Part shown: one piece after another, positions 10,753-19,679 of the stretch | How positions within the stretch are numbered: the first letter of the stretch is position 1 | How the letters are laid out: every line of letters starts with the position of its first letter | Assembly (NCBI GenBank): GCA_965371825.1 | Contig: CBDUZY010000001.1 | Coordinates: 1 to 32,268 of the forward strand | DNA from: an uncultured bacterium | GTDB taxonomy: Bacteria > Planctomycetota > Phycisphaerae > UBA1845 | Direction: 5' to 3' | DNA: 32,268 nt | Translations under genes and position numbers: made by a program | Notes under the pieces: generated by a model | Database searches by the model: none | What the model saw: the letters and a program-made list of their open reading frames with translations, nothing else | What the model was told of the DNA's origin: nothing

Positions 10753-12822
10753 TCACCCGACCAGGGCCTTGGCCTCGGCCGCCGGGACGGGTGCATAGTG
10801 TGCCGGGGTCATTGACGACGTGGCGCGACCTTGGGAGAGGCTTCGGAGCTTGGTGACGTAGCCGAACATCTGCGCCAGCGATACCTCAGCGGAGATCACC
10901 CGGGCCTGGCCACGGGCCGAGGTATTCCGAACCAGGGCTTTCCGGGCGTTGAGGTCGGCCATGATCGCCCCGAGATACTCCTCGGAGGTCACGACCTCGA
11001 CGTCCATGATCGGCTGGAGAAGCACGGGCCCCGCAGCGTTCAAAGCGTTGTGAAAGGCGACGTGGGCCGCGCTCTCGAACGCCGTCTCCGAGCTCTCCGT
11101 CTGATGTTGCCTGGCCCCGATGATAGTCGCCTTCCAGTCGATCACGGGGTATCCGCCCAGCGTACCGCTTTGGGCTGCCCCGGTGATGCCCAACTCGACG
11201 GCGGCGGCGAACTCCGGTGCGAGTGCCTCGTAGCCCACGGTGTTTACCACCGTTGGCCCTTTGCCCCTACCGTCTTTCGGCAGGGGCTCCAACCGCAGGC
11301 GAACGACCGCGAAGTGATTTCGGCCGCCGATCTGGCGAGCGAACCTACCCTCGCCCTCGCCGACCCCCTCAACCGTTTCTCTGTACGAGACGCGTGGTTT
11401 TCCGACGATGACATCCACGTTCATCCCGGTCCGCAGCCGGTGCATTACGACCTCGAGGTGCAACTCGCCCATCCCCGAGACCAGCGTCTGTCCCGTCTCG
11501 CTGTTGATTGTGACGCTGATCGTCGGATCCTGCCGCTCGAGGGCGTTTAGGGCATCGAGGAGTTTGTCGCGATCGCGTGAGGAGCGGGGCTCTACCGAGA
11601 TGCTGATAACCGTCTCGGGGAACGTGATGGACTCCAATATGACGGGGTGTCGGGCGTCGCACAGTGTCTGCCCCGTGAGCGCCTCCTTCGGCCCGACGAC
11701 GGCGACGATATCACCGGCCACGGCTTCGTCGAGCTGGTCTCGTCGCTTGGCGAACATGCGATAAATCCGGCTTACGTTCTCTTTGTGCCCGGTAGACGTG
11801 TTGAGAAGGCGCACGTTCGGCTTGAGTGTGCCCGAATAGACACGCAGGAAGTACAGGTCGACCGGCTTTTCGGCGACGACCTTGAAAACCAGCGCCGCAA
11901 CCGGACCGGATGGGTCGCCGGAGAGTTCGCGCTCGACGCCCTCCCGCGTGGGGTCTTCGGCTTTTACCGGCGGAACGTCAAGAGGACTGGGAAGATAGTC
12001 GCACACGGCGTCCAACATTCGCTGGACCCCGATGTAGCGGAGTGCACTACCGCACAAAACGGGGTAGAGGGTCCGGGACAGCGTGCTTCGGCGCACGGCC
12101 GACCGGATGGATTCCGCATCGACCGGCTCGTTATGGACGTACTTCTCCATCAAGTCGTCGCAGTGTTCGCAAAGAGTCTCCAACAGCATGTGTCGTCCGC
12201 GTTCCGCCGCGGCGCAAAGGTCATCCGGAATCTCTCGTACCTCGAACGACGAACCCAGTGCCTCCCGGCTGTAGTAGACGGCCTTCATCTCGACCAGATC
12301 GATGAGGCCTTCGAAACTCCCGGCCGCCCCGATCGGAAGCTGAAGCTGAAGCGGATTGGCACCGAGCCGCTTACGAATCGAGTCCACGCTGCGCTCGAAG
12401 TCGGCCCCTACGCAATCCATCTTGTTGATGAAACACAGGCGCGGTACACCGTACTTGTCTGCTTGGCGCCAGACGGTCTCGGACTGGGCCTCGACCCCTT
12501 CCTTGGCGTCGAAGACAGCCACCATCCCGTCGAGAACACGAAGAGACCTCTCGACCTCCGCCGTGAAGTCGACGTGCCCGGGCGTGTCTATCAGGTTGAT
12601 CGTGTGACCGCGCCAGGGACAGCTTACCGCGGCTGAGTAGATCGTAATCCCTCGAGTCTGTTCCTGTTCATCGAAATCGGTCGTAGTGGTGCCGGCGTCG
12701 ACCTCGCCCATGCGGTGAGTCCTACGCGCATAGTAGAGGATGCGCTCGGTCGTCGTGGTCTTCCCGGCGTCGATGTGGGCGGCTATCCCGATGTTGCGAA
12801 CCGTAGCGAGGTCGATACTCAT
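10753..12822 (-). CDS. fusA: Elongation factor G family GTPase (str-operon copy, divergent)
   Basis: Trimmed to ATG 12822 (MSIDLATVRNIGIAAHIDAGKTTTTERILYY). G motifs AHIDAGKTT, RGITI, DTPGH and NKMD are present, and all five EF-G domains are recognisable. Position after rpsG. Confidence 0.92.
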   Translation of the reverse strand: MSIDLATVRNIGIAAHIDAGKTTTTERILYYARRTHRMGEVDAGTTTTDFDEQEQTRGITIYSAAVSCPWRGHTINLIDTPGHVDFTAEVERSLRVLDGMVAVFDAKEGVEAQSETVWRQADKYGVPRLCFINKMDCVGADFERSVDSIRKRLGANPLQLQLPIGAAGSFEGLIDLVEMKAVYYSREALGSSFEVREIPDDLCAAAERGRHMLLETLCEHCDDLMEKYVHNEPVDAESIRSAVRRSTLSRTLYPVLCGSALRYIGVQRMLDAVCDYLPSPLDVPPVKAEDPTREGVERELSGDPSGPVAALVFKVVAEKPVDLYFLRVYSGTLKPNVRLLNTSTGHKENVSRIYRMFAKRRDQLDEAVAGDIVAVVGPKEALTGQTLCDARHPVILESITFPETVISISVEPRSSRDRDKLLDALNALERQDPTISVTINSETGQTLVSGMGELHLEVVMHRLRTGMNVDVIVGKPRVSYRETVEGVGEGEGRFARQIGGRNHFAVVRLRLEPLPKDGRGKGPTVVNTVGYEALAPEFAAAVELGITGAAQSGTLGGYPVIDWKATIIGARQHQTESSETAFESAAHVAFHNALNAAGPVLLQPIMDVEVVTSEEYLGAIMADLNARKALVRNTSARGQARVISAEVSLAQMFGYVTKLRSLSQGRATSSMTPAHYAPVPAAEAKALVG

Positions 12823-12947
12823 GACCGATTCCCTGCACTCCTCCGCCGTAGCACGGGCGGACCACCGAAGCACACCGGCGCTCCGGCTACACAGCGAGCC
12901 CACCCGGCAAGTCGGGCGGGCTCTTCCACGAAAGTCACGACGCGCGG

Positions 12948-13424
12948 TTACCAGGCGAAGTGGGCGAATGCCTTGTTCGCCTCAGCCATCCGGTGAATGT
13001 TCTCACGGGTAGTCACGGCTGTCCCTTCGCCCTTCGCTGCGTCCATGATCTCCTGAGCGAGTGACTGGCTGACCGGTCGCCCCTTCTTCGCCCGGGCGGC
13101 CTCACGCAGCCAGCGAAACGCCAGAGACTGCTGGCGCTTGCGGTTGACCGGCATGGGCACCTGATAGTTGCTGCCGCCGACGCGCTTGGAGCGGACCTCC
13201 ACGTTGGGCTTGCAGCGAGCGATTGCCTGCTCGAACACCTCGAGCGGCGATTGATCCGACACGCGCTTGGCGACGATATCCATTGCGTTGTAGAAGACCC
13301 GCGTGGCGGTACTCTTCTGGCCGTCCCACATGATGCTGTTGATGAACTTGGAAACGAGCAGGCTCTCGAACCGGGTGTCCGGTTTCAACTGCGCCGACGA
13401 GTTCGTGAATTTCTTATAACCCAT
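12948..13424 (-). CDS. rpsG: 30S ribosomal protein S7
   Basis: 158-aa ORF with ATG start and S7-like sequence (...[19 protein letters not shown]...KAFAHFAW). Confidence 0.96.
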
Positions 13425-13502
13425 AGCTAATGCCGATCCGTAGACCGTTCCACCTCAATCGGGCGACCAGCCCGACACATAACCTAACCAGTTTACGCGG
13501 AC

Positions 13503-14102
13503 CTAGATACCGCTCACGGCCCTCCGTCGATTACGCCGTCCACGCAGCTTCAGGCACACGCCCACAGCCAGGAGCAACTCAACCAACGCCTTCATGGCGA
13601 ACGGAAGGAAGCCCGTCGCCACCGCCAACCGGAGGTCGCCGCCGAACCACACAACCTGCCAACCTACCCCGATAGCAAACACGACAATCAAGCCGATCGC
13701 CCCGGCTACGAGCAACCGAGCAGCCCCAGCCGACTCGTCTCCGCGGAACACACTCACCAACCATGCGGCCCCGACGAATCCGACTATGTACCCGCCCGTC
13801 GGACCCATGACACCCAGCGAACCAGCGCAGAACACGGGAAGCCCCAGCGTCCCCAGCGCCAAGTACGCGAGCATCGCCCCCGCCGCCGGACCGGGACGGA
13901 GCATCAGTCCCGCAAGCAGAACCGCCAATAGCTGCAACGTCATGGGCACTACTGTGCCGGGCACGGGAATCCGAACCTGGGCCGCGAGGGCGGTCAGCAG
14001 GCAGAAACCCGCCACGCCGAGCAGCGTGCGACCCGCGCTATGCACAGCAACCGACCTGCCTACCGCACTCTCAAACACAGCTTCCGAGTCCGTGGTCCGC
14101 AA
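13503..14102 (-). CDS. bioY: BioY-family biotin transporter (ECF S-component-like), polytopic membrane protein
   Basis: 199-aa hydrophobic ORF with BioY hallmarks: AQVRIPVPGTVVPMTLQLLAVLLAG...LGLPVF..G......GPTGGYIVGF. TTG start at 14102 is preceded by AAGGAG plus a 9-nt spacer, 41 nt after the rpsL stop. Confidence 0.85.
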   Translation of the reverse strand: MRTTDSEAVFESAVGRSVAVHSAGRTLLGVAGFCLLTALAAQVRIPVPGTVVPMTLQLLAVLLAGLMLRPGPAAGAMLAYLALGTLGLPVFCAGSLGVMGPTGGYIVGFVGAAWLVSVFRGDESAGAARLLVAGAIGLIVVFAIGVGWQVVWFGGDLRLAVATGFLPFAMKALVELLLAVGVCLKLRGRRNRRRAVSGI

Positions 14103-14143
14103 CGAAACATTCTCCTTAGGCCAAACCCAACTGACGCTCGCAA

Positions 14144-14533
<390 letters not shown>

Positions 14534-14580
14534 CGATTCTCTCTACAGCCTTGTGTCGCTCATCGCGACGTTCCAACTAC

Positions 14581-14605
14581 ACAAAAGCGTCCAAGTCCTC
14601 CGGAC
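14581..14605 (-). terminator. Weak hairpin plus U-tract immediately after the rpoC stop (possible partial terminator)
   Basis: Transcript strand: GTCCGG-AGGAC-TTGGAC (4 GC/AU pairs plus 2 GU pairs), followed by GCUUUUGUGU. The stem is weak, so this is a low-confidence call. Confidence 0.25.
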
Positions 14606-19021
<4,416 letters not shown>

Positions 19022-19114: not shown

Positions 19115-19606
19115 TCATGCTACACTGCCGGACGTCGCAACGACCGGCGACAGCGTAGCACCGGCGAGGAGCTCCAACACCTCCACCCCGTGCTGTTTCT
19201 TGAAACCCAGCTCTTCACAGAAGTCCACCTCCGTCCCGTATGCGATGGCGTCGACGCGTTCGACACCGTACTCCCTAAGCGCCGCAATCACGCGCCTGGC
19301 CATCTCTCGGGCTATACCGGAGGCGTCGTGCTCGATGCGACCGTCCGTCCTCGTCACGCACGCGGGTCCCTGGTAGGCGGGATCCAGCTTGCACTCCGCC
19401 AATCTTCCCCACAGACCGTCCGTTACTCCGCGGGCAAGACCGATCAGCTCTCCGTCATGTCGCGCCGTCACGATGCAGAAGGTGTTCCGGAGCATCTTGT
19501 CGATCTTCGTCCGTTCGTGCGTCGTTTCGTGGTGCTGTCGGCCATAGAACGCCAACAGCTCCTCCGGAGCGGGCTTGTTCGTGGAGTATGTGATTCCGGT
19601 GAACAT
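19115..19606 (-). CDS. GNAT-like N-acyltransferase (163 aa) inserted between rpoB and rpoC
   Basis: ATG 19606 is preceded by AAAGGAG plus an 8-nt spacer. GNAT-like segments are CIVTARHDGELIGLARGV, LDPAYQG, GIAREMARRVIAALREYGVERVDAIAY and FCEELGFKK. The family assignment is by eye only. Confidence 0.6.
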   Translation of the reverse strand: MFTGITYSTNKPAPEELLAFYGRQHHETTHERTKIDKMLRNTFCIVTARHDGELIGLARGVTDGLWGRLAECKLDPAYQGPACVTRTDGRIEHDASGIAREMARRVIAALREYGVERVDAIAYGTEVDFCEELGFKKQHGVEVLELLAGATLSPVVATSGSVA

Positions 19607-19679
19607 CTCATTCACTCCTTTTCGTGGCCATCGGTTCCCGTTAGACGCCACGGCGTCAACGGTCGGTGACAACACCTGA

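Follow-up and report, generated by a model that had tools for sequence, protein, structure and literature searches.

A gene for a BioY-family protein lies between rpsL and rpsG in the str cluster of the window (the whole 32,268-nt stretch of DNA analyzed), and this placement was found to be fixed in the family of uncultured Planctomycetota to which the genome belongs (family f1). Solitary BioYs, biotin auxotrophy and the str operon were already known; the apparently undescribed element is a bioY gene held permanently between rpsL and rpsG. Few bacterial gene pairs are as stable as these two, and here a transporter is held inside the pair across more than 20 genera, a rare and clean example of a core translation operon capturing a metabolic gene. 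As a whole, the reading that we consider probable is that a solitary BioY of a biotin auxotroph was captured once, became a vertically inherited str cistron and is carried on an mRNA shared with its neighbors.

Layout and distribution of the bioY-bearing str cluster

The cluster is encoded on the minus strand in the order rpoC, rpsL, bioY, rpsG, fusA, with the following features:

14606..19021, minus: rpoC, an ORF of 1471 aa upstream of the str cluster; rpoC products of relatives 71-85% identical
14589..14605, minus: terminator-like hairpin and T-run (GTCCGGAGGACTTGGAC GCTTTTGTGT) from the consensus scan, directly after the rpoC stop and 56 nt before rpsL
14144..14533, minus: rpsL (ribosomal protein S12, 129 aa), PF00164 at 121.6 bits; relatives 77-91% identical
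14103..14143, minus: rpsL-bioY spacer of 41 nt, read from the sequence, carrying the Shine-Dalgarno AAGGAG
13503..14102, minus: bioY, an ORF of 199 aa with about six membrane helices, PF02632, TTG start
13578..13592, minus: TM6 codons K171-A-L-V-E175, from alignment column counts
13425..13502, minus: bioY-rpsG spacer of 78 nt, read from the sequence, holding a 6-bp hairpin
12948..13424, minus: rpsG (ribosomal protein S7, 158 aa), PF00177 at 187.4 bits
10753..12822, minus: fusA (EF-G), an ORF whose homologues align from the start at 12822

The gene positions, both spacer lengths, the AAGGAG and the TTG start reported in the first-pass annotation were all recovered where it had placed them. The rpsL stop codon (TAG) occupies 14146..14144 on the minus strand, the Shine-Dalgarno lies at 14117..14112, 9 nt ahead of the bioY TTG, and this TTG at 14102 is the earliest start codon possible in the bioY frame. 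Translation of BioY would begin at this TTG, with a Shine-Dalgarno of its own. The start of fusA is likely the ATG at 12822 (MSIDLATVRNIG...) and not the GTG at 12903 of the ORF list (window 12823..12903); in tblastn searches with the product of the 12822 start, relatives matched from residue 1, and with this start the rpsG-fusA spacer would measure about 125 nt. The site at the end of rpoC was the sole terminator-like match of the consensus scan on the coding strand outside coding sequence, and it may mark a split between rpoBC transcription and the str genes. The same scan, based on a sigma-70 consensus from which Planctomycetota promoters may differ, detected no sigma-70-like promoter in the 72-nt rpoC-rpsL spacer.

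The distribution of the arrangement was assessed in a sample of relatives (40 genomes, 24 of them in f1) and in a class-wide sample (251 genomes). A BioY homologue was present in 20 of the 24 f1 genomes of the relatives sample, and in all the relatives' loci that were fetched (n = 19/19) bioY immediately preceded rpsG in the same orientation. Upstream of bioY, rpsL was found in the 17 loci reaching that far, the other two (G023 and G016) stopping at a contig edge, while fusA followed rpsG in all 17 f1 loci extending far enough. The rpsL-bioY-rpsG order was also shared by G005, G028 and the contig-split G013, and seven more f1 genomes from the class sample had BioY 88 to 182 nt from rpsG. In total, 28 of 32 f1 genomes (22 genera, the window's own genome counted) and both genomes of family f5 carried rpsL-bioY-rpsG, indicating that the synteny for which the first-pass annotation had advised a comparison with related genomes is conserved. 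Of its description of bioY as inserted at this locus, the position between rpsL and rpsG held, but the insertion is not a trait of this genome, being an old event fixed family-wide. Gene order at the trio is thereby an easy marker with which to recognize this large family of uncultured Planctomycetota.

Among the f1 genomes without the arrangement, two (62% and 72% complete) lacked the entire rpsL-rpsG region, and in the two others (G017 and G019) rpsL and rpsG were 136 and 138 nt apart, with no BioY anywhere in the genome. Both f5 genomes (G028 and G038) kept the trio, with rpoC on another contig and no fusA after rpsG; in G028 its neighbors were a sodium-symporter-like gene and a convergent leucine-rich-repeat gene. 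The surroundings in f5 differ yet the trio is intact, indicating that it holds together while its context changed.

Beyond these two families the arrangement was not detected. The 60 BioY-bearing genomes of the class sample comprised 12 from f1 (the window's own included), one from f5 and 47 others. It was absent from 46 of these 47, 26 being excluded by their listed coordinates and 20 by 2.5-kb flanks, and the remaining genome (G081, 70% complete) had no rpsG match. In families f2 and f6, which belong to the same order, BioY was located at unrelated sites and rpsL and rpsG were adjacent. Neither rpsL nor rpsG was found near BioY in the loci examined from other phyla (0/15).

The rest of the str cluster was also variable within this order. 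Unlike in f1, no fusA was found after rpsG within 1-1.9 kb at loci L045, L046 and L048-L050 (f2, f3, f4 and f6) or at L037 and L041 (f5); the cluster has been repeatedly rearranged within the order. In family f10, the 407-nt rpsL-rpsG spacer of G033:C160 (locus L047, 1484-1890) contained no BioY and had a predicted folding energy of -179 kcal/mol.

A join of a foreign bioY fragment to the str contig by assembly or binning had to be weighed, the window's genome being a fragmented MAG (3.4 Mb, 648 contigs, 74% complete). The same order was nonetheless recovered from about 30 independent assemblies of 24 genera, plus GenBank record JBBTCJ010000027 (Planctomycetota, the closest public record), which rules out an assembly error. 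The composition of bioY (G+C 0.657, GC3 0.755) was close to that of its neighbors, with a genome G+C of 0.620, and the BioY tree tracks the family, leaving an artefact with a practically negligible probability.

Spacers and transcription of rpsL-bioY-rpsG

Neither the 41-nt nor the 78-nt spacer contained a promoter-like or terminator-like consensus, in scans with the sigma-70 consensus from which Planctomycetota promoters may differ. This agrees with the absence of a terminator-like U-tract on either side of bioY remarked upon earlier, and no T-run of four or more was present in the 78-nt spacer. A hairpin had been pointed out in that spacer, and TCGGGC-TGGTC-GCCCGA does exist at 13475..13459, but it carries no statistical weight (z = -0.61): 47 of 200 dinucleotide shuffles folded as well, and in DNA of 62% G+C a spacer that folds like its shuffles holds no more hairpin than expected by chance. 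The element was accordingly discarded as a structured feature.

Some spacers in the relatives were much shorter. Between rpsL and bioY they ranged from 0 to 5 nt in several genera (0 nt in G011, where stop and start abut as TAGATG, 3 nt in G007 and 4 nt in G020), and between bioY and rpsG they were as short as 6 nt (G015), 12 nt (G038) or 17 nt (G014 and JBBTCJ01), leaving no space for a terminator plus a promoter. Terminator-like sites, each a hairpin followed by a T-run, were found in none of 23 bioY-rpsG spacers and in three of 21 rpsL-bioY regions, two of these three sites lying inside a possible coding extension of bioY. The gene has the layout of a str cistron: it shares the strand of rpsL and rpsG, is separated from each by a short distance only, and has no terminator on either side. 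Co-transcription of rpsL, bioY and rpsG appears likely from the spacer lengths and the missing terminators.

An alternative is that bioY is transcribed and regulated independently, from a promoter in the spacer or in the 3' end of rpsL and with hairpin termination before rpsG, in which case uptake would be uncoupled from the ribosomal genes. Several observations lend it something: hairpins after bioY had z below -2 in seven of the 18 relatives' spacers of at least 40 nt, G024 has a terminator-like site just past rpsL, and a scan of this kind would miss non-consensus promoters. The evidence from G028, a genome of lower GC in which consensus signals can be read, points both ways. A promoter-like TTGGCA-17-TATACT ahead of rpsL and a canonical terminator after rpsG, none being seen from rpsL to bioY, favor a shared transcript, but the 264-nt bioY-rpsG spacer of this genome contains a second promoter-like site (TTGCGA-16-TATAAT), so that rpsG may have a separate or second promoter there. 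The post-bioY hairpins of the relatives are GC-rich and have no U-tract, and they could attenuate or tune read-through, or stabilize the mRNA. Against separate transcription stand the spacers without room for it, the lack of U-tract terminators before rpsG, the absence of a promoter-like site in the window's own region, a spacer there that folds no better than shuffled sequence, and the trio kept intact in f5 with neither rpoC nor fusA next to it. We regard independent transcription as improbable. Under the favored reading of a shared transcript, bioY would most likely be carried on one mRNA from the str promoter together with rpsL, rpsG and, in f1, also fusA, and biotin import would be constitutive, scaling with ribosome synthesis and not responding to biotin.

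This setting differs from those described for regulated bioY genes. The bioYMN operons and the BirA-, BioR- or BioQ-regulated bioY operons of Rhodobacter, Rhizobium and Corynebacterium encode the same S component, but here no BioMN was found near or far, the context is one of housekeeping genes, and no operator-like palindrome was seen in the 41-nt spacer. The canonical str operon of E. coli and most bacteria, rpsL-rpsG-fusA(-tuf), has the same order and strand as the cluster of the window, which also follows rpoBC as in many bacteria; here, in contrast, a membrane-protein cistron divides rpsL from rpsG, and no tuf follows fusA. In E. coli, S7 exerts its translational feedback at the rpsL-rpsG spacer. 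In the window, rpsG is instead preceded by the 3' flank of bioY, without a conserved element or an Rfam match: Rfam returned nothing in 12700..14800 (E up to 1), nor in the rpsL-rpsG spacers of five relatives, and the conserved leader before rpsG common to bioY-less relatives was not found in the window's spacer.

That leader was observed in f2 and f3 relatives without a str-embedded bioY, whose rpsL-rpsG spacers measure 109-191 nt (L046:1876-2066, L048:1577-1685(-) and L050:1631-1790). These spacers share the motif GAGTATGG(T/G)GA(G/C)CGG, followed by a hairpin and then by CCAGAAGGGAGCAG just ahead of the rpsG ATG, and have very stable predicted folds (-54 to -96 kcal/mol), making them candidates for an S7-type leader RNA.

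BioY identity, biotin economy and the TM6 lysine

The 199-aa ORF matched Pfam PF02632 with 94.2 bits (cut-off 25) over profile positions 2-139 of 140, and a genome-wide scan gave a single BioY match in the whole assembly, at 95.2 bits. No NCBIfam model matched the protein. An AlphaFold2 model built from a 17-sequence alignment had a pLDDT of 90.5 and a pTM of 0.82, and its top Foldseek matches were chains A and C of 4DVE, the BioY of L. lactis (E 1e-7, TM 0.73-0.77); other ECF S components (FolT, RibU, ThiT and PanT) ranked behind, with E 5e-3 or worse. A sequence search of the PDB returned 4DVE as its only match. Profile and predicted fold bear out the initial assignment of the ORF to BioY, and its product is a member of the BioY family, an S component, with a variant TM6 motif.

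The L. lactis protein, of a group II ECF system, is 24% identical to the BioY of the window and has the VP.TLQ and GPTGGY motifs in common with it, but it carries the canonical lysine (...PGDCIK) that the window's BioY lacks at that position. The L. lactis BioY uses a shared EcfAA'T module, and its authors, as cited in PMC3459881, reported that on its own it binds but does not transport.

The genes around biotin in f1 are those of an auxotroph. At the TIGR00433 cut-off, bioB was not detected in any of 32 f1 genomes (0/24 in the relatives sample and 0/11 in the class sample), the window's own included, and bioD was absent from the five f1 genomes searched for it (own plus four 99-100% complete). 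The same five all had a BirA-type ligase, with four matches above the cut-off and a partial one in the window's genome, and four of the five, this genome included, had BCCP. EcfT/CbiQ (PF02361) was likewise absent from these five genomes, although the profile matched in 11 of 14 reference genomes used as control; dedicated A components are indistinguishable from other ABC ATPases. Since the window's genome is only 74% complete, gene absences rest on the 99-100% complete relatives. The auxotrophy raised by the first-pass annotation as a matter to check is thus in accordance with the gene content, and its description of a solitary BioY also withstood the search for EcfT/CbiQ. A Phycisphaera MAG without biotin-synthesis genes had been noted earlier (PMC11136935).

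In the 251 genomes of the class sample, BioY was present in 60 and bioB in 155, both in none and neither in 36. The two states alternate inside families (BioY/bioB: f12, 22/12; f16, 23/2; f20, 1/6; f22, 1/8), and these within-family switches indicate that the complementarity is not owed to a single split. This mutual exclusivity argues strongly, though indirectly, for biotin import by these BioYs, and we infer biotin as the substrate of the BioY of the window. The 36 genomes with neither gene, G017 and G019 among them, suggest that another biotin uptake route probably exists in the class.

Like the Planctomycetota, Chlamydiae are members of the PVC superphylum. The BioY of Chlamydia trachomatis and eight solitary BioYs (Finkenwirth, Kirsch and Eitinger; PMC3459881, PMC4049904) resemble the present case in having the S-component fold, no BioM, BioN or EcfT, and a host without biotin synthesis. 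The chlamydial protein transported biotin in E. coli without BioMN (PMC3459881), and so did all of the solitary BioYs tested in that host (8/8; PMC4049904). In the favored reading, the BioY of the window would bind the substrate in the membrane and take up biotin with no ECF energizing module to assist it, and it would be the only biotin route of a lineage that lost synthesis yet biotinylates the carrier protein of acetyl-CoA carboxylase. An external biotin need is predicted for f1 organisms, which could be useful in cultivation attempts. Known solitary BioYs, in contrast, have not been reported in a str operon, and the crown f1 proteins differ from them in having the TM6 lysine one turn earlier. 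A full-text literature search found no paper joining bioY with rpsL/rpsG or the term 'str operon'.

This shift was apparent in an alignment of 60 BioYs (37 not embedded in str, four basal f1, two f5 and 17 crown f1). Of the signature residues of the family (the VP.T.Q loop, T-G-G-Y-.-.-G-F, and P-F and the lysine in TM6), positions P53, T55, Q57, T102, G104, Y105, F109, P167 and F168 were invariant, and all are kept in the window's BioY. Position 175, corresponding to the TM6 lysine that may be linked to biotin binding, was K in all 37 non-str BioYs, in the four early-branching f1 proteins and in both f5 proteins; in 16 of the 17 crown f1 proteins it was E or Q (E175 in the window). K171 was present in exactly those 16 crown proteins without K175, and the lone crown protein with K175 has L171, so that the K175/K171 exchange co-varies perfectly across the 17 crown sequences. 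In non-str BioYs position 171 was mostly G (29/37). Four residues are about one helical turn, so the helix face that bears the charge is probably unchanged.

These substitutions bear on a further alternative, in which the str-embedded BioY changed function, taking up another vitamin-like substrate or serving as a membrane anchor for str mRNA or nascent ribosomal proteins, while biotin enters by other means. It draws on the replacement of a lysine invariant in 43 other BioYs by E or Q in nearly the whole crown, on the identity of only 43-58% among BioYs within f1, and on G017 and G019, which live without BioY or bioB and imply another biotin route in the family. The exact match between gain of K171 and loss of K175 looks instead like compensation and argues for it over a loss of function, all the other invariant BioY positions are retained, f1 falls on the BioY side of a strict complementarity across 251 genomes, and the gene is the only BioY of its genome. 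A change of function is to our mind very improbable, although the crown-clade lysine change leaves room for altered binding.

With biotin import retained as the preferred function, BioY is ordinary in what it does; its placement, its lineage-wide retention and its relocated lysine are the modestly surprising aspects. The linkage of bioY with the str genes may carry a selective advantage. A more elaborate proposal is speculative and rather unlikely: the linkage would be adaptive and no frozen accident, subjecting the only biotin importer of an auxotrophic lineage to the same growth-rate control as ribosomes and EF-G; the crown clade would then have remodeled the binding pocket (175->171, possibly for ECF-independent transport); and co-translational insertion of BioY into the membrane would, as a side effect, tether the rpsL-rpsG-fusA mRNA there. 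The family provides a natural test of ECF-free solitary BioY function, with the relocated pocket lysine as probe.

Origin and losses of the str-embedded bioY

Maximum-likelihood analysis of 60 BioYs united the 21 f1 proteins in one clade (SH-aLRT 96) and placed the two f5 proteins, with weak support, outside it. An independent insertion in f5, hinted at by this free tree, found no support in the AU test or in the constrained-tree likelihood: a single clade of the 23 str-embedded BioYs gave an AU p of 0.74 and was 11 lnL units better than the free search. One insertion for all the str-embedded BioYs is compatible with the data, not proven by them. The rpoC tree recovered f1 (support 99), with G017 and G019 nested among BioY-bearing lineages, which indicates two secondary losses of bioY, and grouped f5 with f1, f7, f8 and f11, a clade that was supported as a whole though not in its branching order.

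The neighbor-like composition of bioY and a BioY tree that follows the family rule out a recent horizontal transfer, and by these sequence criteria the insertion is old. In the favored scenario, bioY would have arrived between rpsL and rpsG a single time, in the forebear of f1 and probably of f5 too, and vertical descent would afterwards have kept it there as an established gene of the str cluster.

A second passenger was observed upstream, where a GNAT-like gene lies between rpoB and rpoC (window 19115..19675, minus strand). At the corresponding loci of the relatives (L071-L100) it was present in most f1 genomes, although not in G003, G010 or G022, and also in f5, f8, f2 and f6, but not in f3, f4, f7 or f9. 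Its spread is wider than that of bioY and different from it, indicating that the two passenger insertions were separate events.
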